Source: a phage
Sequence record: PZ445437.1
DNA: 64,000 nucleotides
Direction: 5' to 3' (one strand)
The notes below the pieces were generated by a model. It saw only the letters and a list, made by a program, of their open reading frames with translations. It ran no database searches and had not been told where the DNA came from. Shown here in pieces: positions 4,581-41,450 of this stretch. The position numbers and the translations under genes are program-made. How positions within the stretch are numbered: position 1 is the first letter of the stretch; each line of letters begins with the position of its first letter.

Positions 4581-5596
4581 TGTGTTGCCTCTACATATAG
4601 CTGGTTTGCATATTGAATAAGTGCTTCACGGTCAGAATCAGTGATGTCTGGAATTGCATTAATGTATTCTTCCATCAACGTCTGAAGAGATTGAACTTCA
4701 ACTTCTTCACTGTCATCTGACTCGACAGAGTTATCAATTTTTGACACAACTCGTAATGAATGCACAACTTTTTCTAGTTCAGATTCGAACTTCGTTAGAT
4801 TTTTGTCTACTTCAGTTACTATAACACGTACTGATAGATTTGTAAAATCTTTATAGTCAATTTTTCCTTTAAATGGATAATGAATTCTACGATGCCAGGT
4901 AGTGTTGTTTGGAATAAATTCCATTCGTTCTGTTTCTGTATCAAACATCCAGAACCCACGAGGGTCATTCTCGTCACCTGCAGTTAGTGTCCATGGTGTC
5001 CCAATATATCTGACGTTAGCAGCCTCAGAGATAGTATGGAAGTGACCAGACCACACTTCTTTATAAGTCTTAAGGAAATCAGGTTCAAGACCATGAGATT
5101 TCATTCCTTTATAAAAATAAAATCCGTTCAGTTCCCAGTGACCAACGCAAAAAGAAGCAGATGAAGTTTTGATGTGTTCAAGAATTTCACCAGTATTTTC
5201 TTCACACATCCAAGGAATTAAATCAATTAAACATCCGTCAAAATCTACTGTAGTAGGCTTATCATATACTTTAACATTAGGATATTTAGCCAAAAGCTCA
5301 GTAGAGGCATTTGGATGCATTACATTTTTATAGTGGAGATCGTGATTTCCTACAATAGTGTGTAATGTAATTCCAGCATCATCAAGCGTTTGAACTATTT
5401 CACGGGCAAACTCCATAGTTTTATGTGTGATCGCTTTTCTCACATCAAAAATATCACCATATTGAATCCAGGTAGTAATTCCATTTTTCTTAGAATATTC
5501 TATTGCTTGTTTAATTCCATCAATTTGAATACCGCGAATCCACTCATCATCAGCTTTAACGCCTAAATGCCAATCACCCAAGTTTAGTATTTTCAT
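4577..5596 (-). CDS. 47: recombination endonuclease subunit gp47 (Mre11/SbcD-like phosphoesterase)
   Basis: 339 aa; calcineurin-like phosphoesterase motifs (GDWHLG, GDIFD, GNHD, GHWE, GHFH). Confidence 0.92.
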   Translation of the reverse strand: MKILNLGDWHLGVKADDEWIRGIQIDGIKQAIEYSKKNGITTWIQYGDIFDVRKAITHKTMEFAREIVQTLDDAGITLHTIVGNHDLHYKNVMHPNASTELLAKYPNVKVYDKPTTVDFDGCLIDLIPWMCEENTGEILEHIKTSSASFCVGHWELNGFYFYKGMKSHGLEPDFLKTYKEVWSGHFHTISEAANVRYIGTPWTLTAGDENDPRGFWMFDTETERMEFIPNNTTWHRRIHYPFKGKIDYKDFTNLSVRVIVTEVDKNLTKFESELEKVVHSLRVVSKIDNSVESDDSEEVEVQSLQTLMEEYINAIPDITDSDREALIQYANQLYVEATQ

Positions 5597-10850: not shown

Positions 10851-10880
10851 ATAATACCACGGTTTGAACTTGTTGTAAAC
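10851..10880 (-). promoter_or_regulatory. T4-type early promoter (-35 GTTTAC, 18-nt spacer, extended -10 TGGTATTAT)
   Basis: Minus-strand GTTTAC at 10875-10880 and TGGTATTAT at 10851-10859, read directly. Confidence 0.55.
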
Positions 10881-10962
10881 AACTTTGTGAAAAATATTTC
10901 AGGGAATGATAAGAAAGGAACGATAGCTTAGAATGGTAATATACAGAATGTAAGAAAGAAAG

Positions 10963-19670: not shown

Positions 19671-19698
19671 TTTGTGTTCCTCCGTAGTTGATAGTTGT

Positions 19699-19728
19699 AT
19701 AGTACCACAAAGGAACAGTCTTGTAAAC
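19699..19728 (-). promoter_or_regulatory. T4-type early promoter (-35 GTTTAC, 18-nt spacer, -10 TGGTACTAT)
   Basis: Minus-strand GTTTAC at 19723-19728 and TACTAT at 19699-19704 with an upstream TG. Confidence 0.55.
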
Positions 19729-20134: not shown

Positions 20135-21103
20135 TTATTTCAGAAGAGTAACCTCAGCAATTTCTTCCCAACCATTTTTGTCGGTCATAATAAAGTCAGC
20201 AAGATAAAGAGCAGTACGCAGTGAAACATTGCGTAAACGATTAACATTGACTTTCATCCATGATAATGCTTTATAAGTTTCTTCATCAGAAAGACCGCGC
20301 TTTTGCATCATATCAGTCGAAAGAATAACATCTTCAACCCTGACCATAATTTCTTCATTAGTGTGAACACCCAAATCCAAATAAACTGAGCGGGACACTA
20401 ATGCTTGTAAATGTGGAGCAAGTTTAGTACCACGGTCTAATTCGCGGTCAATGTCAACGTTTGTGATAAAAACAATCGTTCCTTTAAATTCAAACTCACG
20501 CTCAATGCCTTTTTCTTCTAAGTAAGAAGATGCAGTGCTCCAGCAGACTTTACGGGTCTCTCCAGTGTCCAGAGCAGCTTTCAGAAGATTAAGAATGTCC
20601 ATATCAGAGAAAACATCCACATCATCAATCAAAAGGACAGAATTCTCTTCACGATTATTCCAAAGCTGTTCATAAAGACCGATACCAGAGATTTTACCGT
20701 TAATGCTTTTATATTCAATGTATCCAATATCATTTGCTTTATTTAAAGCTTTATCTAAAGAATACGTTTTACCAATACCCGCCGCACCAGAGATAATTAA
20801 TGAACGAATATTTCCATTAATAATACCATTCGTCATCATTCCCATAACATTAAATCTTTTATTAATGCGGGTTTTCATATCTTCATATGATTCTTTAACT
20901 TCTTCAACTTTTACACCATCATATGAAATGTCTGATTTATAAACCCAAACACCGCGACGTTTACCGTCAATTTCAACAAAAACTTTACCATCTCCTTGTG
21001 CATCTACCGGAGCATTATCTGGGAACCATTCGCCTAAGAGCTCAAAAGTTCCAGAGATTTCTTTACCGAAGTAGATACCCTTATTGATAGTTACAGTTTT
21101 CAT
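20135..21103 (-). CDS. P-loop NTPase (AAA-like ATPase) of unknown function
   Basis: 322 aa; Walker A GAAGIGKT and Walker B-like VLLIDDVD. Confidence 0.55.
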   Translation of the reverse strand: MKTVTINKGIYFGKEISGTFELLGEWFPDNAPVDAQGDGKVFVEIDGKRRGVWVYKSDISYDGVKVEEVKESYEDMKTRINKRFNVMGMMTNGIINGNIRSLIISGAAGIGKTYSLDKALNKANDIGYIEYKSINGKISGIGLYEQLWNNREENSVLLIDDVDVFSDMDILNLLKAALDTGETRKVCWSTASSYLEEKGIEREFEFKGTIVFITNVDIDRELDRGTKLAPHLQALVSRSVYLDLGVHTNEEIMVRVEDVILSTDMMQKRGLSDEETYKALSWMKVNVNRLRNVSLRTALYLADFIMTDKNGWEEIAEVTLLK

Positions 21104-21160
21104 TTTATTCTCCTTTGATTTGATAGGACTACTATAACATAGTCCTATCAGTTTGTATAC

Positions 21161-21361
21161 TTATTTTGACATTTCTTCGATGTCACGACGATACCCGTCA
21201 CGAACTTCACGAAGAGCTTCAAGGCCACACATAGGCTCGATACCTGTAATGTGAACTTGATTAATCTGATACTCTACATCTTCTAACTGAGCGAAAACAT
21301 AACGACGTTCAGCTGCACAACCAGATTTAGCTTTACCGAAACGTTTATTCAAAGTAGTCAT
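21161..21361 (-). CDS. hypothetical protein
   Basis: 66 aa; RBS GGAGAT before the ATG; early promoter upstream. Confidence 0.4.
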   Translation of the reverse strand: MTTLNKRFGKAKSGCAAERRYVFAQLEDVEYQINQVHITGIEPMCGLEALREVRDGYRRDIEEMSK

Positions 21362-21399
21362 TTTGTATCTCCAATTTACTCATTTGTTTTGATAGGTCT

Positions 21400-21429
21400 A
21401 TAGTATCAACAACTACAGACCATGTAAAC
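21400..21429 (-). promoter_or_regulatory. T4-type early promoter (-35 GTTTAC, -10 TGATACTAT)
   Basis: Minus-strand GTTTAC at 21424-21429 and TACTAT at 21400-21405, 18-nt spacer. Confidence 0.5.
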
Positions 21430-21460
21430 CGTTTTGTGAAAAATTTTTGAAATAAAAAAG

Positions 21461-21479
21461 GGAGCCCGAAGGCTCCCTA
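21461..21479 (-). terminator. GC stem-loop (GGGAGCCCGAAGGCTCCC)
   Basis: 7-bp GC stem with tetraloop immediately 3' of the 337-aa ORF. Confidence 0.45.
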
Positions 21480-22493
21480 TCATTTATAATAACTTCGGTG
21501 GTTTTCAAGATAGACCTTCTCAAGGAAGTCATCCCAGAAACTCATGTCTACTGTTTTAGGCATACCGTTCTTAGAAGCTTCAGTAGATGCTGCTTCTACT
21601 TGATCGACCACATCTTCCAAAAACTCTTGAACTGTTTTAAATGGATGTTTACCCAACTTCACGTCGAGAATAAATGGAGCATCTTGAAGTGGATAGACTA
21701 AGTCACCAGTTTTGTAAATTTCCAATAGTTGGAGTCCACCACGACAAGCATGACTCAAAGCTTTCCAGTCAATACCTTCATTGGCTTCAGCCTTACGAGC
21801 ACGTTCACCGTATTCAGCATCTAATTTGTTCAGTGACTGCTTAAGCTCAATAAGAGAAAGCGTTGTCTGATATTTACGACCCAACACTGTGTAAAACGTC
21901 TGTGGGCCTGTTTTCTCATGATTATGGAACACCCATTCACAGAATTCGTTTTCTGGAAGACGATGCTTAATATCTTCAACTTTAGTACGACGCTGCTTAA
22001 TGGAACCGTCTTCTTGGTAATCAACCCATTGCTCAGGGATTTGATTAACTACTTTCAATACATCGCGTAATGCAGCCAAACGAGAACCCTTGACACCGTA
22101 TTTAGAAGCTTGCTTGCGGACATATCCTAAATAGGATTTCATGTTAGTCGTATAAAAACGAGAACGGTTGTCTTGAATAAACTTCCACACATCAGGCAAA
22201 TCAGATTTAACCACTAGTTCAGGTGGAGTGTGAAGCATATCCAATGCTACAGTTTCACCATCTGCTGCTAATTTAAAGAAATATTTAAGACTGTATAGTT
22301 CATGGTCAATATCATCTTTAGTGTTTTTAGATGATGTGTTGTTAGTGTTTTTACTCATGTGCTCTTTGACATTTCCGATAAGAATATCACGAGCAGGAGG
22401 AACAAAAATTTCTTTAAAATCTACATCAGATTCTGGGGTAGAAGTTCCATAAAGATGACTACCAAAATAGCTTTTCATTACTGTTTTCATCAT
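21480..22493 (-). CDS. putative pol-beta-superfamily nucleotidyltransferase-like protein
   Basis: 337 aa; N-terminal GSHLYGTSTPESDVDF fits the GS-x(9-13)-DxD nucleotidyltransferase signature; the rest is unassigned. Confidence 0.45.
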   Translation of the reverse strand: MMKTVMKSYFGSHLYGTSTPESDVDFKEIFVPPARDILIGNVKEHMSKNTNNTSSKNTKDDIDHELYSLKYFFKLAADGETVALDMLHTPPELVVKSDLPDVWKFIQDNRSRFYTTNMKSYLGYVRKQASKYGVKGSRLAALRDVLKVVNQIPEQWVDYQEDGSIKQRRTKVEDIKHRLPENEFCEWVFHNHEKTGPQTFYTVLGRKYQTTLSLIELKQSLNKLDAEYGERARKAEANEGIDWKALSHACRGGLQLLEIYKTGDLVYPLQDAPFILDVKLGKHPFKTVQEFLEDVVDQVEAASTEASKNGMPKTVDMSFWDDFLEKVYLENHRSYYK

Positions 22494-23245: not shown

Positions 23246-23273
23246 GATGTTCTCCTCTTTATCTGATAGTTGT

Positions 23274-23303
23274 ATAGTACCACAGCTCAAACGGAAAGTA
23301 AAC
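23274..23303 (-). promoter_or_regulatory. T4-type early promoter (-35 GTTTAC, -10 TGGTACTAT)
   Basis: Minus-strand GTTTAC at 23298-23303 and TACTAT at 23274-23279; same module as at 19699. Confidence 0.55.
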
Positions 23304-27662: not shown

Positions 27663-27692
27663 ATTATACCACAGTCAAGAGGAAAAGTAAAC
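27663..27692 (-). promoter_or_regulatory. T4-type early promoter upstream of regB (-35 GTTTAC, extended -10 TGGTATAAT)
   Basis: Minus-strand GTTTAC at 27687-27692 and TGGTATAAT at 27663-27671. Confidence 0.6.
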
Positions 27693-29829: not shown

Positions 29830-30303
29830 TTATTTGAACGATTTAACGTACTGAATAGAACCTTTACTATTCACAAAGGCAATTTTACCATTTTTGTTAT
29901 ACATGGTAGCAGTACGTTGATAGCCATAAGTTTGTTTACCAGATTGATAACCAACTAATGCAAAATTATCTTCACCCATTTTATTCTGTTTAGCGCGAAT
30001 GCGTTCATGGCCATGTGCCATAAGAACCTTAGCATCACCTGTTGCAATGGATCGACGAGTTTTTTCATCTTCAACTGTATTAACAAAGTCGTCAAATGAA
30101 TCAAATTTAGCATGAGATTTATTATACAGTTTTCCATCTACTGCATAATTATATCCTTGTACATCCATCTCAACTTCTGTACCATCATCCAGTACAGCAG
30201 TGATTTTCTGTCCTTTTTTAAATTTCAAAAGATCAGTAAAAGATTCAGCAATAATTTGAGAATTAATAGTTGCTTCAGTAATAAATTCTTGATATGTTTT
30301 CAT
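29830..30303 (-). CDS. internal-protein-like protein with prohead-protease capsid-targeting sequence
   Basis: 157 aa; starts MKTYQEFITEA, the conserved capsid-targeting N-terminus of T-even internal proteins. Confidence 0.6.
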   Translation of the reverse strand: MKTYQEFITEATINSQIIAESFTDLLKFKKGQKITAVLDDGTEVEMDVQGYNYAVDGKLYNKSHAKFDSFDDFVNTVEDEKTRRSIATGDAKVLMAHGHERIRAKQNKMGEDNFALVGYQSGKQTYGYQRTATMYNKNGKIAFVNSKGSIQYVKSFK

Positions 30304-30363: not shown

Positions 30364-30393
30364 ATACTATCACAATTCTAGGAGAAAGTAAAC
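30364..30393 (-). promoter_or_regulatory. T4-type early promoter (-35 GTTTAC, -10 TGATAGTAT)
   Basis: Minus-strand GTTTAC at 30388-30393 and TAGTAT at 30364-30369. Confidence 0.5.
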
Positions 30394-34524: not shown

Positions 34525-34567
34525 TTCATTCTCCAAGTTGTTTTCTGTATCAGTAGTTGATAGTTGT

Positions 34568-34597
34568 ATAGTACCATGGAAGGACAAGGATGTAAAC
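34568..34597 (-). promoter_or_regulatory. T4-type early promoter (-35 GTTTAC, -10 TGGTACTAT)
   Basis: Minus-strand GTTTAC at 34592-34597 and TACTAT at 34568-34573. Confidence 0.55.
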
Positions 34598-34739
34598 CGT
34601 TTTGTGAAAAAATTTTTAAAAAGTTTTGGGGAATTCTAGGGCAGGGAGGGGAAATCAAAGGATAGGATAATATATTATAAAGGGTAGAAACTAAATGATG
34701 TCTAGAGAGGCCTGGAAAGGCCTAGATACCAAAAAGCCC

Positions 34740-36595: not shown

Positions 36596-36685
36596 TGGCG
36601 GAGGCGATAGGATTTGAACCTATGAGTCGCCGGAGCGACTGCCGGTTTTCAAGACCGGTGCATTAAACCACTCTGCCACGCCTCC
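36596..36685 (-). tRNA. tRNA-Ser (anticodon UGA), class II
   Basis: Acceptor GGAGGCG/CGCCTCC, anticodon stem-loop CCGGT-CTTGAAA-ACCGG, long variable arm, encoded CCA. Confidence 0.8.
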
Positions 36686-36691
36686 AAATAT

Positions 36692-37300
36692 TTATATATT
36701 GTTAATTTGATTTAGAATTCTTTTTGCTTGAGTATGACTTACGCCAATATGCTTAGCATATTTAGATAATTCACCACGCTTAGAAAAATCATATAATTTA
36801 GAAATTTCTATTCTTCTTTTTCTTTCATCCACAGAAACTTTTGCTTCGTTTGCTTTTGCTATTTTACGTTTAGCTTCTTGAGAATGAGTTTTACCAGCAA
36901 AGCCATTCTTCATTAATCCATTTGAAGACCATCCTTTTAATTTTCCGTTAGAATGTGCCTTTTTAACACCCAATGAAATTAATTCGCGTTGCTGGTCTGT
37001 CATAGGATAATTATTTATATGATCCCATCCACCTTCACCGCCAAGTTTTAAATTATACACATCTGGTCTATTTAAAAACTCTTCTGTAACAATATTTTTC
37101 TCGGCTTCAAGCATAGATTCTTTATCATCAAAATACTCTAATATTTCTTTAGAAAAATTTTCTATACCATACTTATCTTGGGCTCTTTTTAATAATTTAC
37201 CAGAACCCATATATCCATCATCTAAATTTTCGGTAGAATGCACACCAATATAAATTTTATTATTAATTTTATTTGTTATTTTATAAAGATAAAAATGCAT
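36692..37300 (-). CDS. segB: GIY-YIG homing endonuclease SegB-like, inside the tRNA cluster
   Basis: ORF 36692..37342; MHFYLYKITNKINNKIYIGVH GIY-YIG-type motif plus NUMOD-like C-terminus; start at the internal Met is preferred because the longer ORF abuts tRNA-Gly. Confidence 0.65.
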   Translation of the reverse strand: MHFYLYKITNKINNKIYIGVHSTENLDDGYMGSGKLLKRAQDKYGIENFSKEILEYFDDKESMLEAEKNIVTEEFLNRPDVYNLKLGGEGGWDHINNYPMTDQQRELISLGVKKAHSNGKLKGWSSNGLMKNGFAGKTHSQEAKRKIAKANEAKVSVDERKRRIEISKLYDFSKRGELSKYAKHIGVSHTQAKRILNQINNI

Positions 37301-37346
37301 ATCAGTCCCTAATAAAGAACTGAGCGTCTCACGACGAGTCATAAAT

Positions 37347-37420
<74 letters not shown>

Positions 37421-37425
37421 AAATT

Positions 37426-37512
37426 TGGTGCGAGAAGTGGGACTCGAACCCACAAGGAAATCATTCCGCAGCATTTTAAGTGCTGTGCCTTTACCAATTT
37501 GACCATTCTCGC
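37426..37512 (-). tRNA. tRNA-Leu (anticodon UAA), class II
   Basis: Acceptor GCGAGAA/TTCTCGC, anticodon stem-loop CAGCA-CTTAAAA-TGCTG, encoded CCA; 1 nt from tRNA-Gln. Confidence 0.8.
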
Positions 37513-37513
37513 G

Positions 37514-37586
37514 CTGGGAATAAAGGACTCGAACCTTTGCATCCTGGAATCAAAATCCAGTGCCTTACCAACTTGGCTAATTCCCA
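37514..37586 (-). tRNA. tRNA-Gln (anticodon UUG)
   Basis: Acceptor TGGGAAT/ATTCCCA, anticodon stem-loop CTGGA-TTTTGAT-TCCAG; CCA not encoded. Confidence 0.8.
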
Positions 37587-37672
37587 ATTATTAACAAAGG
37601 CTCTCAAGCAAGAACCCTTGATGATAGAGGGTATTAATCAGTGCGGTATGAGTTAATAATAACAAATAATTC

Positions 37673-38188
37673 TTAAAGCAAATTAAACATTTTAACAGTC
37701 GGCAAAACAATTTCTTTTTCTATATAAGAGTATTTAACACTCTCAACTACGCGCAGAAAATCATAATCATAATATTCAGAAGCACTGCCTAAAATATTAA
37801 TAAGTCCTTCAAGCACTTTATTACCATTCACAAAGAATAAGTCAAATACACGTTCTTCATCTTCTTCAGATTTATTACCAAGGTCAACTTCTATATCAAA
37901 GACCTTTTTAATGAATTCTGGATAAAGCTGGTCTGAGAACAGTCCTTCAACCAAGTATTCATAGATAAAAAGCGATTGCTCGCTGAACAAGCCATTACCA
38001 CAATAACGTTCAGCTTTAGTACTAGAATGTCTACTTTTAAACTTCTTTAAAAGATATTGAAATTGTAAGATTTCATGCTCTTCTACGCCAAACAGTGTTT
38101 TAGTTTTATAGTTGTCACCATCATTTTCCCAGGTAGTGACATCAATTACGTAACCCTGTGGAATTGTAGTACCTAAACAAATATTCAT
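37673..38188 (-). CDS. hypothetical protein
   Basis: 171 aa ORF upstream of the tRNA cluster. Confidence 0.45.
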   Translation of the reverse strand: MNICLGTTIPQGYVIDVTTWENDGDNYKTKTLFGVEEHEILQFQYLLKKFKSRHSSTKAERYCGNGLFSEQSLFIYEYLVEGLFSDQLYPEFIKKVFDIEVDLGNKSEEDEERVFDLFFVNGNKVLEGLINILGSASEYYDYDFLRVVESVKYSYIEKEIVLPTVKMFNLL

Positions 38189-38478
38189 TTGCTCACCATA
38201 TTAATGTAAGTATATTCAATACATTCAAGACCCAAAGGATTCTTGAAAATATCATATTCAAGAGGACCTTTTTCCGTTTCAATAAAGAAATCAAAATTTA
38301 CTGTATTAAATTTACGGTCTTCCTTCACTAATTTAACCTGAGAAGATGAACGGTCAATGTAAACCTTTTCAACTTCAAAACATGTTAAAATGCCATAATC
38401 ATCAATCAAGGCTTTAGCTGCTTCTTGATCATATTTATATCCATTTTCAATGGATGATACTTTAGCATAAAGAATCAT
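38185..38478 (-). CDS. hypothetical protein
   Basis: 97 aa ORF, stop overlaps downstream start. Confidence 0.4.
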   Translation of the reverse strand: MILYAKVSSIENGYKYDQEAAKALIDDYGILTCFEVEKVYIDRSSSQVKLVKEDRKFNTVNFDFFIETEKGPLEYDIFKNPLGLECIEYTYINMVSK

Positions 38479-38480
38479 TA

Positions 38481-38891
38481 TCAGCCTCTATCAACGATAG
38501 CATGAGTATGGGCATTTACGATTTGCCACCAGTCGAAACGATTGGAACCATAATCTGGTTTATTTTCATTTTCTTTAATGATATCACGCAACTTATCTTC
38601 TGTTTCAGCATACGCAATTAAATCATCATATCCACCGCAAGGATAATAATTATCACCTGCGAATAAAAGAAAATTTACCTTAGATGGATTTACGTAATAA
38701 TGGTCTTTAGGATATTTAGTTCCTCTCCAATCAGTTACTTCAACATAACGGTAAGAAAATCCATTTTTACTTTCAATCCAACTCCACGCTTCAAAAGGAG
38801 TATTAAAAACTTTATCAGGTATTAAATTACCTTCAAAATGAGAAGGATTTGCATAATCCCCGGCATAAACATAATATTCGTTAATACTCAT
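38481..38891 (-). CDS. hypothetical protein
   Basis: 136 aa ORF, aromatic-rich. Confidence 0.45.
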   Translation of the reverse strand: MSINEYYVYAGDYANPSHFEGNLIPDKVFNTPFEAWSWIESKNGFSYRYVEVTDWRGTKYPKDHYYVNPSKVNFLLFAGDNYYPCGGYDDLIAYAETEDKLRDIIKENENKPDYGSNRFDWWQIVNAHTHAIVDRG

Positions 38892-39077
38892 TTATTCACC
38901 TTTAGAAATTTTATCCATAACGATAGCGATTAAACCAATTAAAAATGCTACTACAAGCGAAAACACATTTTCTGCTGTAGTTAATAATCCGCATATAAAT
39001 CCAACAAACATTGAAAAACTAAAAGCGGAAGCAGAAATTGCAATAGCAACATTTCGAATTAATTCACAACGTTTCAT
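38892..39077 (-). CDS. small membrane protein
   Basis: 61 aa with two hydrophobic helices; RBS GAGGAGAA before the ATG. Confidence 0.4.
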   Translation of the reverse strand: MKRCELIRNVAIAISASAFSFSMFVGFICGLLTTAENVFSLVVAFLIGLIAIVMDKISKGE

Positions 39078-39105
39078 TTTATTCTCCTCAGTAGTAGATA
39101 GGGTA

Positions 39106-39135
39106 ATAGTATCACTACCCTATCTAAAAGTAAAC
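39106..39135 (-). promoter_or_regulatory. T4-type early promoter (-35 GTTTAC, -10 TGATACTAT)
   Basis: Minus-strand GTTTAC at 39130-39135 and TACTAT at 39106-39111; part of a repeated cassette (see 39406). Confidence 0.55.
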
Positions 39136-39369
39136 TTATTTTTTACGAAAAATTGATTTATATTTATCAGCCCATTTCTCGATGACTTTTGCCGGGCCAT
39201 AGATAACAAAATAATCACCAAACTCTTCACCACCGAGTTGACCGAAATTATCTAATGCATCACGAAGAACTCCATGAGGCATTTCGCCCATTTTATCTTT
39301 CTTACCAATGTAAATAAACTCAACTTTTACATCAGCAGCTTCAGCAATAAATTCTTGATACGTTTTCAT
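39136..39369 (-). CDS. internal protein (IPI-like) with capsid-targeting sequence
   Basis: Starts MKTYQEFIAEA at the RBS-preceded internal Met of ORF 39136..39387; 77 aa. Confidence 0.6.
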   Translation of the reverse strand: MKTYQEFIAEAADVKVEFIYIGKKDKMGEMPHGVLRDALDNFGQLGGEEFGDYFVIYGPAKVIEKWADKYKSIFRKK

Positions 39370-39405
39370 TTTATTCTCCAATTTCACATTTGTTTTGATA
39401 GGGTA

Positions 39406-39435
39406 ATAGTATCACAACTAAAACCCTATGTAAAC
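39406..39435 (-). promoter_or_regulatory. T4-type early promoter (-35 GTTTAC, -10 TGATACTAT)
   Basis: Minus-strand GTTTAC at 39430-39435 and TACTAT at 39406-39411; shares GATAGGGTAATAGTATCAC with the promoter at 39106. Confidence 0.55.
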
Positions 39436-39447
39436 AACTTTGTGAAA

Positions 39448-40144
<697 letters not shown>

Positions 40145-40145
<1 letters not shown>

Positions 40146-40870
40146 TATAGTACCTTTAGTGTATTTTTAATTTTAGAAAAAAGTTCTTCAAGAGAACCAT
40201 CGTTTGTAATTACTAAATCGCCATCACGAATTGGCAATCCAGCTTCTGTAATATGTGTATCATTGGATTTTTGACCAGGACGAACTACATGAATTACTGT
40301 AGCACCCATCGCCCTAGCCGCATCCATTTCATGATCTTGACGGGTATCAGGAACGATATAATAATCATAACCTGAGTTAAATTTATCAAGATAATCTAAA
40401 GCAAATAATTTTACCCAGTACATGCGGTCGAAGTTATTAACAATCAAATCCGTACCTAGGGCTTGCATCAGACGACGGACTGACCATTGATCTTCAATAT
40501 TATTTATAACGTCAATAATCTTGTTAAATGCTACGGAATTAACTGATTCTTGTCCTTCGTCATCAAAAACAAACACACCTTTAATCGGGCTTTTACCATT
40601 AAGATAGCAAAATGCTTGTTCCATAATCGTGATTACTTCTAATTTAGTCAGATTTAAATTAGTCTCACGATCATAGTCAATTCCTTCAAACTCTTTACGA
40701 GTTAAGCAAGGATAGTCAGTGTTTGCTGCAAATACTCCCCATGCATAAGCCAATGCATCCTTAATAGGACCAGCAAGTTGGTATTTAACTGCAGAATAAT
40801 TGCTCATGATAAAATCAGCAGTAGTATCTTTTCCACTGCGCTTTACACCGCTTAAAAAGATTAGTTTCAT
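40145..40870 (-). CDS. 1: deoxynucleoside monophosphate kinase gp1
   Basis: P-loop GVKRSGKDT; start taken at MKLIFLSG to give 241 aa. Confidence 0.85.
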
Positions 40871-40919
40871 GTGTTTCTCCTCAAATTTAATTAAGATTAT
40901 AACACACAAAACTGAAGCA

Positions 40920-41450
40920 TTAAACTTCCGCTATAATTTTTCCATCTTTTTCTACTTGAAAATAGGTGTAAGGAATCGTTGCAGTACATACTAAAGCCGG
41001 GTCTGAATCTTCTGTGTAGCTAAATTCTACTTCAGACAGGTCAGAAACCCAAGGCTTATAAAAATTTATTGACATCACGATTTCAGTTTTGCTATTATCT
41101 AAGATGTAAAGCGTAATGTATTCAGGACCTGTTTTTTGAGCAGTATTTTCACCTGTAAGATAGTTACTAGTTCCTAGCATCCATTCATACATTCCTATCC
41201 ACGACTTAAGTTCTTCATCAACTATAAATCTCACAATGAGTGGATCGTATTCAAATGTAACACCTGGTCGTTGTGCTCGGCCAAGTCCAAACGGCCCAGT
41301 CACGGTATCAGTAACAGGTATTCTAATTCCTGGAATAGGAACTGACTGAGCATTTAAAGTAAAAGCAGATGTAGTATTACTATGTGGTATTGATACTACA
41401 AAGTTAGTTGTATTTGCTTGGTTAAAAATTTGTTGCAGAGCTTGCGACAT
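40920..41450 (-). CDS. 3: tail completion / sheath stabilizer gp3
   Basis: ORF 40920..41531; internal Met start gives the 176 aa expected for gp3; T4 gene order 1-3-2-4. Confidence 0.75.
   Translation of the reverse strand: MSQALQQIFNQANTTNFVVSIPHSNTTSAFTLNAQSVPIPGIRIPVTDTVTGPFGLGRAQRPGVTFEYDPLIVRFIVDEELKSWIGMYEWMLGTSNYLTGENTAQKTGPEYITLYILDNSKTEIVMSINFYKPWVSDLSEVEFSYTEDSDPALVCTATIPYTYFQVEKDGKIIAEV

Follow-up and report, generated by a model that had tools for sequence, protein, structure and literature searches.

The original account of the elements of the IP locus is reportedly that of Repoila, Tetart, Bouet and Krisch in 1994 (EMBO J 13:4181). A later description, which credits Repoila et al. 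1994 with their first observation, treats these T-even elements as PeSL-like (promoter-early stem-loop) analogues: T4 early promoters with weak, AT-rich stem-loops of variable size, found with alternative ip genes bearing a capsid targeting sequence (CTS) and proposed to cause IP shuffling (PMC2839356). The PeSLs proper of RB49/phi1, PST/T4 and nt-1/KVP40 (Arbiol 2010; Comeau 2014) have a sigma70-dependent early promoter, lie in hyperplastic regions, and show a characteristic order of parts, namely the stop codon of the upstream gene within AT-rich sequence, a −35 sequence, a stem-loop over the −10, a Shine-Dalgarno sequence (SD), and a start codon. The stem-loop most commonly lies between the −35 and −10 or overlaps the −10, the overlapping class being the commonest, and mapping has placed crossovers in the loop (PMC2839356). 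A model of gene shuffling by cassettes is, as these papers present it, already known for the IP1 locus (Repoila 1994, Arbiol 2010, and Comeau 2014, via PMC2839356 and PMC4122927). Here we describe two repeats in a T4-like phage which share with the Repoila elements the same IP1 locus by ipI/57B, the same phage group, and the features listed above, and which, as far as the later papers describe those elements one by one, differ from them in no substantive respect. We propose, with a probability of about 85%, that the repeats are PeSL-like cassettes of the T-even type that punctuate the hypervariable IP1 locus, and that genes are swapped there by crossovers within them.

The window, by which we mean the whole 64,000-nucleotide (64-kb) stretch of DNA analysed, is a Tequatrovirus (T4-like) genome in which all of the genes of the 39-kb region lie on the minus strand. 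Gene order in this region, 57B followed by an ip gene and a trna.4-like gene, agrees with the T4 annotation and places the interval at the IP1 position. Gene 57B (acb1; 39448–39903, minus strand) is the conserved 5′ anchor of the locus, and the trna.4-like gene (38892–39077, minus strand), which encodes a 61-aa predicted membrane protein of phrog_1692 and is annotated trna.4 in T4, is the conserved 3′ anchor. Between them an open reading frame at 39136–39369 (minus strand), enclosed by the two cassettes, encodes a 77-aa internal virion protein which begins MKTYQEFIAEA, and thus with an N-terminal CTS (MKTYQEFIAE; pattern MKT[YF].EF...E), as expected of the T-even internal proteins, whose genes are small and non-essential. 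The protein falls in phrog_8111 (“internal virion protein”, 5.9e-51) and is annotated Ip6 in phage JK1. An earlier note on this DNA had called the gene IPI-like; the likeness holds for the CTS, which is of the IPI type, but the gene is of the Ip6 type and we rejected homology to IPI, as BLASTP to T4 IPI aligned residues 1–16 only, at 38% identity, and the two proteins fall into different PHROG families (8111 for the window protein and 4363 for T4 IPI). At this locus the T4 records NC_000866 and AF158101 hold CDS entries only, with no promoter features. The locus is one more IP1 allele, with a single Ip6-type gene between two PeSL-like cassettes.

Cassette A (39364–39452, minus strand) lies between 57B/acb1 and the ip gene, and cassette B (39072–39135, minus strand) separates the ip gene from the trna.4-like gene, which B is predicted to drive. 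Both contain the promoter elements GTTTAC (−35) and TGaTACTAT (extended −10) with a spacer of 17 nt, together with GGAGAATAAAATG and an inverted repeat enclosing the −10. Read on the minus strand, each runs GTTTAC-N17-TACTAT, with the N17 counted from TTTACW, then GGAGAATAAA-ATG, so that both end in GGAG...ATG, the SD and start of the downstream gene; the final codons are ATG AAA, followed in ip genes by the conserved CTS codons. At its 5′ end, cassette A includes the 57B stop codon (TAA, 39450–39448), 12 nt before the −35, and an upstream element AATTTCACAAAGTT; its −35 is at 39435–39430 and its −10 hexamer at 39411–39406. In cassette B the ip stop codon (TAA, 39138–39136) abuts the −35 at 39135–39130, and the −10 TACTAT is at 39111–39106. 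Both promoters match TTTACW-N17-TAYWAT, the published PST/T4 PeSL promoter consensus (PMC4122927), and belong to 12 strict matches in the window, all 12 on the minus strand. Cassettes A and B would thus be expected to act as early promoters, with transcription predicted to start ~7 nt past the −10, at roughly 39399 in A and 39099 in B.

The earlier note had reported two repeats, at roughly 39074–39135 and 39367–39435 and about 300 bp apart, each with a −35 GTTTAC, a shared stretch, a ribosome binding site, and a start codon. The repeats were found there with all of these parts, on the minus strand, at a start-to-start spacing of 300 nt; A also extends upstream to 39452. Their similarity goes well beyond the promoter hexamers, contrary to what the note had named as grounds for refutation. 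An exact 19-mer (GATAGGGTAATAGTATCAC; GTGATACTATTACCCTATC for the minus-strand feature) at 39397–39415 in A and 39097–39115 in B takes in the −10 and the right arm of the hairpin, reaching 4 nt beyond the −10 on its upstream side and 9 nt on its downstream side, and has only these two copies in 64 kb, even when 3 mismatches are allowed. With 0.01 expected and none of 100 shuffles giving two matches, a chance origin of the repeats was rejected. A second exact block, the 16-mer TTTCATTTTATTCTCC, occurs at 39364–39379 and 39072–39087. The special likeness of A and B is confined to these two blocks. Gapless identity between the cassettes is 39/66, within the range among the other early promoters of the window, indicating that much of their similarity comes from a shared functional consensus and not from recent common ancestry. 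The idea that they are an unusually close pair overall was also rejected, A being nearer to the cassette at 21428 described below.

Other members of the family are scattered through the window. Three of them, at 19699, 23274, and 34568, had been listed in the earlier note, and TGTATAGTACCA is indeed present at all three (19696–19707, 23271–23282, and 34565–34576; 0.29 expected). On the minus strand these sites read as early promoters of the form GGTTTAC..TGGTACTATACAACTATCA, a sub-family occupying 19699–19727, where a hairpin pairs the spacer with the SD, and 23274–23302 and 34568–34596. Three further members, at 21428, 21172, and about 30392, had been missed. The A-like cassette at 21428 (21361–21442, minus strand) has flanks as in A and compensated arms ATGGTCT/AGACCTAT, and its gapless identity to A (48/66) is the highest in the window. 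The B-like module at 21172 (21100–21172, minus strand) has a degenerate −35, and its arms GATAGGACTA/TAGTCCTATC flank TGTTATAGT; it also contains the window's remaining perfect GGAGAATAAAA, the third in all. When the 89-nt cassette A was used as query, it found 2854 places in 939 phage records, about 3 per genome. A and B are old members of this dispersed family.

The motif GGAGAATAAAA, at 39379–39369 in A and 39087–39077 in B, is a perfect match to the 11-nt strong RegB/S1 consensus GGAGRAYARAA (written GG*AGRAYARAA in PMC3014915); it lies in the 16-mer and runs into the start codons at 39369–39367 and 39077–39075. Perfect consensus sites number 3 in the 64-kb window versus 0.46 expected, and two of them are those of A and B. 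In both cassettes, as in the strong intergenic RegB/S1 sites of T4 early mRNAs (Durand et al. 2006; reviewed in PMC3014915), the consensus coincides with the translation initiation region of a gene driven by an early promoter. The site in A adjoins a long hairpin that reaches as far as the first G of the motif, and structure can protect GGAG. We consider it probable that RegB cuts the GGAG of A and B and so shuts off early translation.

In the inverted repeats the spacer of the promoter pairs with the bases transcribed first, which puts the −10 in the loop. In A the left arm ATAGGGT (39429–39423) faces the right arm ACCCTAT (39404–39398), with an outer arm AAACAAATGTGAAATT; the predicted RNA fold is a 72-nt hairpin from 39450 to 39379 (−28 kcal/mol, z −5.8) whose stem consists of 7 bp plus the outer arms and encloses the −10. 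In B the arms are TAGATAGGGTA (39126–39116) and TACCCTATCTA (39105–39095), and the fold is a 14-pair stem (11 bp Watson-Crick, 14 with G.U) of −18 kcal/mol, z −5.4; the arms are arranged differently from those of A. At the promoters at 27691 and 19727 the 3′ arm lies over the SD. Of 45 distinct promoter cores, 15 have the −10 within a perfect stem of 7 bp or more, versus 1.7 ± 1.2 in shuffles. These stems fall into two fixed registers but use at least seven arm sequences (GATAGGGTA/TACCCTATC versus GATGAGGTA/TACCTCATC, for instance), and the non-Watson-Crick positions within them are G.T in 6 cases and A.C in 0. The hairpin thus covaries, complementarity being kept while the arms change.

In two respects the stems depart from those of the described PeSLs. 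The RB49 stems are G/C-rich (GGGG...CCCC) and have been shown to terminate transcription, whereas those of the window are AT-rich, have no U-tract, and are not predicted terminators, a terminator scan of 38400–40200 having found no intrinsic terminator; the terminator role may therefore not apply here. The PST stems, according to a figure legend, stand just upstream of the promoter, whereas the stems in the window enclose the −10. A search for the late promoter motif TATAAATA found none between 39370 and 40500, the nearest one upstream on the minus strand being at 40501–40508, ~1.1 kb away, so that late synthesis of the head protein may need read-through of hairpin A, which counts against strong termination. 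A search of 38700–39700 against Rfam gave no match to a known RNA family at E≤1. Chimeric cassettes in which the inverted repeat is broken exist in relatives (for example, locus L027), indicating that the hairpin is not essential.

In the hairpins of T4 gene e, soc, 49, and I-TevI, translation depends on where the transcript starts: late promoters lie inside early read-through transcripts, in which the SD is sequestered. Cassettes A and B resemble them in having the promoter inside the hairpin, so that RNAs started upstream would fold and those started internally would not; they differ in that the SD is adjacent to the stem and not inside it. With a start ~7 nt past the −10, locally initiated mRNAs would not include the 5′ arm and would be unfolded. 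Read-through RNAs from upstream would form the hairpin, whose function in A and B would probably be to attenuate these transcripts, or to mark and stabilise their 3′ ends.

Gene content at the locus is highly variable. Among 36 related loci, counted as those with both anchors (57B and trna.4), the 57B-trna.4 interval held from 0 to 4 CTS-bearing ip genes, of at least 16 families; an additional ip gene is present in KAW1E185 and in QOTSP. Both cassettes occupy orthologous positions in JK1, KAW1E185, QOTSP, and others. The earlier note had suggested that the repeats may explain the variability of the region, and had asked how cassette boundaries compare with the gene-content breakpoints of relatives. 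Homology breakpoints, taken as BLAST HSP ends against 40 loci, clustered at 39325–39475 and 39050–39150 and so coincided with the cassettes, which, together with the variable gene content, supports that suggestion. Several junctions could be placed at the level of single blocks. In alignment, the T4 ipI-trna.4 spacer consisted of the 5′ half of window cassette A and the 3′ half of B, joined in the 19-mer, and the product of an A × B crossover made in silico within the 19-mer matched that spacer at 105/108 positions. The 21-nt block AATTTCACAAAGTTGTTTACA (39432–39452, minus strand), comprising the upstream element and the −35, has two copies 367 nt apart in KAW1E185, and 367 nt is also the difference in length between KAW1E185 and the window; removing in silico the 367 nt between the repeats gave a sequence matching the window at 212/220. 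The block is the junction of the indel of the ipI cassette that separates KAW1E185 from the window; each of these events may have been a deletion or an insertion. In a further relative (L034) the gene body alone, 39136–39332, was replaced, with breakpoints at the B −35 and in the CTS codons. All four combinations of the half-modules {a,b} × {beta,gamma} exist, and the chimeric cassettes pass the four-gamete test. As with the PeSLs, then, the cassettes adjoin indels and replacements, and crossovers fall within them, the loop region included. These chimeric junctions bear out the earlier proposal that the repeats serve as recombination substrates that shuffle genes; the recombination is, however, not truly illegitimate, as it involves short homology of 19–31 nt.

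In our proposal, each cassette forms an autonomous unit of early expression made up of promoter, inverted repeat, SD GGAG in the RegB consensus, and ATG. Blocks of 16–31 nt recur before every gene of the array, so T4 recombination can cross over between cassettes. With T4's very active homologous recombination, such crossovers can join the cassettes of adjacent genes or those of two phages infecting the same cell, and they delete, insert, or swap whole promoter-plus-gene units while leaving the neighbours undisturbed, as the comparison with relatives shows. Exchange between neighbouring cassettes would excise a mini-circle, predicted from the A-B spacing to be 300 bp; mini-circles are not reported for T-even cassettes.

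It could be argued instead that the similarity of the cassettes is nothing but functional convergence or constraint, that they have no special role in gene turnover, and that ip genes vary through exchange in 57B and trna.4 or through co-conversion by a homing endonuclease. The conserved blocks do coincide with known signals (−35, extended −10, RegB/SD, and start), the A-B identity is no outlier among the early promoters of the window, and a GIY-YIG homing endonuclease gene (36692–37342), variably present among relatives, lies 1.5 kb away. Exchange in the flanking genes would, however, leave junctions there, whereas those observed are inside the cassettes: the T4 spacer is an A/B chimera within the 19-mer, 21-nt repeats mark both ends of the 367-nt indel, the L034 replacement took the gene body only, and every half-module combination is represented. 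We regard this explanation as unlikely. Still less probable is that the pair arose by recent tandem duplication of a promoter in this phage genome. Copies 300 nt apart with exact 19-nt and 16-nt blocks are what such an event would leave, and in speaking of a duplicated cassette the earlier note was right as to the two copies; but both are orthologous in several other phages, their arms are arranged differently, and similar places occur about 3 times per genome across the 939 records, all of which make a recent duplication hardly credible.

The inverted repeat might also be a site acting at the DNA level, either an operator bound by a dimeric regulator or a sequence on which a dedicated recombinase or structure-specific nuclease acts, in which case exchange would be site-specific and integron-like. 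The fixed register of the stems relative to the −10 would suit such a site, as would the location of crossover blocks within or beside the hairpin loop, and for RB49, where a crossover mapped in the loop, the authors themselves raised the possibility (PMC2839356). The arms, on the other hand, covary and are not conserved; arm sequences that differ between cassettes while complementarity is kept point to a structure in the nucleic acid and away from a site recognised by a sequence-specific protein, and so disfavour an operator. Tolerance of G.T but not A.C (6:0) favours one folded strand (RNA or sense single-stranded DNA) over recognition of a duplex, some junctions lie away from the hairpin (in the CTS codons and in the upstream block of 21 nt), and T4 recombination, according to work cited in PMC2839356, needs short homology patches only. 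We therefore consider a DNA-level site very unlikely, and prefer homologous crossover within PeSL-like cassettes.

Within that preferred reading the hairpin might be more than an attenuator, namely a dedicated device serving as a transcript-origin switch, a recombination hotspot, or both. We think this rather unlikely, and mention it on account of the covarying hairpin, its fixed register round the −10, and its ending at or a few bases before the RegB site. As a switch, folded read-through RNAs would hide the RegB/SD sequence or give the upstream message a protected 3′ end, whereas locally initiated RNAs would stay open, and each cassette gene would have its own autonomous expression and shut-off. 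As a hotspot, the structure extruded in DNA or in single-stranded DNA intermediates would be a preferred point of crossover, and the IP locus would be an integron-like cassette array without an integrase.

For the window itself the gain is a correct annotation and base-level junctions to T4 and KAW1E185, and no new question is opened. The internal proteins matter as injected anti-defence effectors, Ip1 and Ip2 being inhibitors of GmrSD-type restriction enzymes (PMC12373910), and the cassette architecture would allow T4-like phages to swap effectors quickly, and thereby to change host range. As a minor feature of this allele, the 5′ anchor gene 57B is interrupted in the window by an in-frame TGA at 39724–39726.

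Every gene around the cassettes lies on the minus strand, in the order gene 1 (dNMP kinase, 40145-40909), 57A (39903-40145), 57B/acb1 (39448-39903), a 77-aa ORF (39136-39369) and a 61-aa membrane ORF homologous to T4 trna.4 (38892-39077), followed by trna.3 and then the tRNA cluster. Over the 3 kb surrounding the cassettes, identity to Escherichia phage JK1 is 98.8%, and there are matches in 886 phage records, most of them from Tequatrovirus (T4-like) phages of Escherichia, Shigella, Klebsiella and other hosts. The locus is the IP1 locus of T4, in whose annotation ipI occupies the slot between 57B and trna.4. The 77-aa ORF begins with the capsid targeting sequence (CTS) MKTYQEFIAE, is assigned to phrog_8111 'internal virion protein' (5.9e-51), and has an orthologue annotated as Ip6 in JK1. 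The name "IPI-like" given to it in the earlier note thus suits the locus and signal peptide but not the protein, whose likeness to T4 IPI is confined to the first 16 residues and whose PHROG is a different one.

Copies A (39452-39364) and B (39135-39072) flank this gene with a spacing of 300 nt. In the 64 kb there are just two copies of the 19-mer GATAGGGTAATAGTATCAC, at 39097-39115 and 39397-39415, and no more when three mismatches were allowed; 0.01 were expected, and two copies were reached in 0 of 100 shuffles. A second exact block common to both copies, of 16 nt, lies at 39072-39087 and 39364-39379. These blocks confirm the two-copy promoter and RBS repeat described in the earlier note and show that it extends past the promoter hexamers. 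On the minus (coding) strand copy A reads GTTTAC-ATAGGGT-TTTAGTTGTGA-TACTAT-T-ACCCTAT-CAAAACAAATGTGAAATT-GGAGAATAAA-ATG, and copy B reads GTTTAC-TTT-TAGATAGGGTA-GTGA-TACTAT-TACCCTATCTA-CTACTGA-GGAGAATAAA-ATG. Both have TG two bases ahead of the -10 and fit TTTACW-N17-TAYWAT, the consensus for promoter-early stem-loops (PeSLs) in the PST/T4 pair (Comeau et al. 2014, PMC4122927); the 12 strict matches in the window share the minus strand and the 17-nt spacing. The three further modules that the note had listed were recovered at 19696, 23271 and 34565 (0.29 expected) as minus-strand promoters of the form GGTTTAC..TGGTACTATACAACTATCA. Recent duplication as the origin of the pair was rejected, because cassette A (89 nt) has 2854 matches spread over 939 phage records, or about three to a genome; the cassettes are an old dispersed family.

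We compared the locus with 36 viral-contig loci obtained via the 57B protein and four from GenBank (JK1, KAW1E185, QOTSP and T4, the last also present as a duplicate record). The number of CTS-bearing ORFs separating 57B from the trna.4 homologue was 0 in 2 loci, 1 in 15, 2 in 12, 3 in 6 and 4 in 1. After removal of the signal peptide these ORFs formed at least 16 sequence families, and the Ip6-type family was seen in first, second or last place in the array. In more distant relatives (loci L005, L010, L020-L023, L025-L031, L036, L037 and L039) there is no intergenic cassette: the start of the first ip gene and the 57B stop codon overlap (ATGA, position -4 relative to that stop), and the gene is apparently translationally coupled to 57B.

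When window positions 37500-41000 were searched by BLAST against all loci, HSP ends were concentrated at 39325-39475 and 39050-39150. Base-level junctions were taken from three close relatives: T4, KAW1E185 and the viral-contig locus L034. Homology to T4 covers 38207-39115 and 39348-41000; the T4 ipI-trna.4 spacer aligns to copy A until the common 19-mer and to copy B beyond it, and the product of an A x B crossover made in silico from the window agreed with T4 at 105 of 108 positions, equal to the background divergence. KAW1E185, with the gene order 57B-ipI-ip6-trna.4, gave two HSPs overlapping at window 39348-39453 and contains the 21-nt block AATTTCACAAAGTTGTTTACA twice, 367 nt apart, which is its length difference from the window; with the interval between these copies deleted, it matched the window at 212 of 220 positions. 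In L034 the replacement is limited to the ip gene body (39136-39332), its edges being the B -35 and the CTS codons. For a four-gamete test we typed the half-cassettes flanking the conserved GTGATACTAT core and found each of the four pairings of {a,b} with {beta,gamma}: T4 has a-beta, the window has b-beta, and L027 has both a-gamma and b-gamma. Also present are chimeras whose inverted repeat is broken, and one with a slipped tandem duplication. Given all four combinations and the chimeras, crossovers inside cassettes are shown by comparison, not merely suggested. Sequence comparison thus established the anatomy of the cassettes and placed the junctions of gene content in the repeated blocks; the proposal that these modules are recombination substrates that shuffle accessory genes is correct and well supported. 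In one cassette of L020 (~4674-4760) the segment GATACTATTACCTCATCAA, with the -10 and right arm, is duplicated in tandem, a pattern suggestive of slippage or unequal exchange within the cassette. At least four minus-strand early promoters in the window have the conserved element TTTCACAAA(g/a)nnGTTTACA upstream of them (10851-10900, 21400-21450, 34568-34620 and 39406-39452); the element takes in the 21-nt block of the KAW1E185/window junction, so that ectopic exchange between distant loci could also be supported.

The inverted repeat in A and B pairs the promoter spacer with bases just past the -10, leaving the -10 in the loop. As RNA, hairpin B has a 14-pair stem (-18 kcal/mol, z -5.4), and hairpin A (39450-39379, 72 nt; -28 kcal/mol, z -5.8) starts with the 57B stop codon and ends with the first G of the SD. 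The fold is not peculiar to this pair: 7 or 8 of the 12 promoters in the window share it. The window and 40 related loci together gave 45 distinct promoter cores, and in 15 of these the -10 is enclosed by a perfect stem of 7 bp or more, versus 1.7 +/- 1.2 (maximum 6) in segment shuffles. These stems fall in two fixed registers with at least seven different arm sequences, for example GATAGGGTA/TACCCTATC, GATGAGGTA/TACCTCATC, AGGGCTAT/ATAGCCCT, AGGGTTAT/ATAACCCT, TGGGAGTA/TACTCCCA and AGGCTCAT/ATGAGCCT, a covariation indicating that structure is kept, not sequence. Imperfect positions comprised six G.T and no A.C in a small, partly non-independent sample, which is no more than suggestive of sense-strand (RNA) selection. 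Neither hairpin A nor B has a U-tract, a scan of 38400-40200 predicted no terminator, and no Rfam family covers them. At promoters 27663-27691 and 19699-19727 (minus) the 3' arm covers the SD (GAGGAG and GGAGG, respectively), so that the RBS is predicted to be sequestered in read-through RNAs and free in locally initiated ones. The block common to both RBS regions, GGAGAATAAAATGAAA, includes GGAGAATAAAA, a perfect match to GG*AGRAYARAA, the 11-nt consensus of strong RegB/S1 cleavage sites (PMC3014915); the window has three perfect sites (0.46 expected), two of them in A and B.

PeSLs were defined in RB49 and phi1 by Arbiol et al. (2010, PMC2839356) as an upstream stop codon in an AT-rich stretch, a -35, a stem-loop, a -10, an SD and a start codon, the stem-loop usually lying between the -35 and -10 or overlapping the -10. 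Their stems terminate transcription, and their crossovers, one mapped in the loop, yield deletions and mini-circles (PMC2839356). The window cassettes have every one of these sequence-level features, but unlike those of RB49 their stems are AT-rich and lack a U-tract, exactly the differences described for T-even IP elements in one account in PMC2839356. According to that account, Repoila et al. (1994) saw PeSL-like sequences at both hypervariable T-even IP loci, and the elements there are built on T4 early promoters, with weaker stem-loops that are AT-rich, and may cause IP shuffling; Comeau et al. (PMC4122927) extended PeSLs to PST/T4 and restated the T-even IP point. The annotation of the T4 records lists no promoter features. 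The cassettes are real and their shuffling role was already known for the IP1 locus; added here are the base-level junctions linking the window allele to T4 and KAW1E185, the quantified covariation of the -10-enclosing hairpin, and the recognition of the conserved RBS block as a perfect RegB consensus.

Exchange most likely proceeds by T4 general recombination on short homology of 19-31 nt; Arbiol et al. (PMC2839356) cite a requirement of <50 bp. Exchange between A and B would release a 300-bp circle carrying ip6. Transcription would start about 7 nt past the -10, with the 5' arm missing from locally initiated mRNAs and folding confined to read-through RNAs; the hairpin probably attenuates or 3'-stabilises upstream transcripts. 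The closest upstream late-promoter motif is at 40501-40508, so late synthesis of the head protein may need read-through, which makes strong termination by the hairpin unlikely. RegB probably cuts the GGAG, ending early translation.

Two further cassette-like modules (21100-21480, minus) flank a 66-aa ORF (21161-21361). The A-like cassette (21442-21361, minus), preceded by a terminator-like GC hairpin and T-run (~21478-21450), has the compensated arms ATGGTCT/AGACCTAT; the B-like module (21172-21100, minus) has the arms GATAGGACTA/TAGTCCTATC, a degenerate -35 (GTATAC) and the third perfect RegB consensus of the window. A second internal-protein gene (29830-30303, minus; 157 aa, MKTYQEFITEA start, phrog_3155), presumably marking the second (ipII/ipIII-type) IP locus, has the promoter TTTACT-N17-TAGTAT (~30364-30392, minus) with the inverted repeat AATTGTGA/TCACAGTT around the -10. 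The anti-CBASS gene 57B/acb1 is interrupted at codon 60 by an in-frame TGA (39724-39726, minus); the codon is GGA (Gly) in each of the seven close relatives for which a match could be made. The TGA is thus either a true nonsense mutation in the phage or an error of sequencing. Within the tRNA cluster, a 216-aa homing-endonuclease-like ORF (36692-37342, minus) sits between tRNA-Ser (36596-36685) and tRNA-Gly (37347-37420), as it does in KAW1E185 and QOTSP; JK1 instead has tRNA-Pro there.
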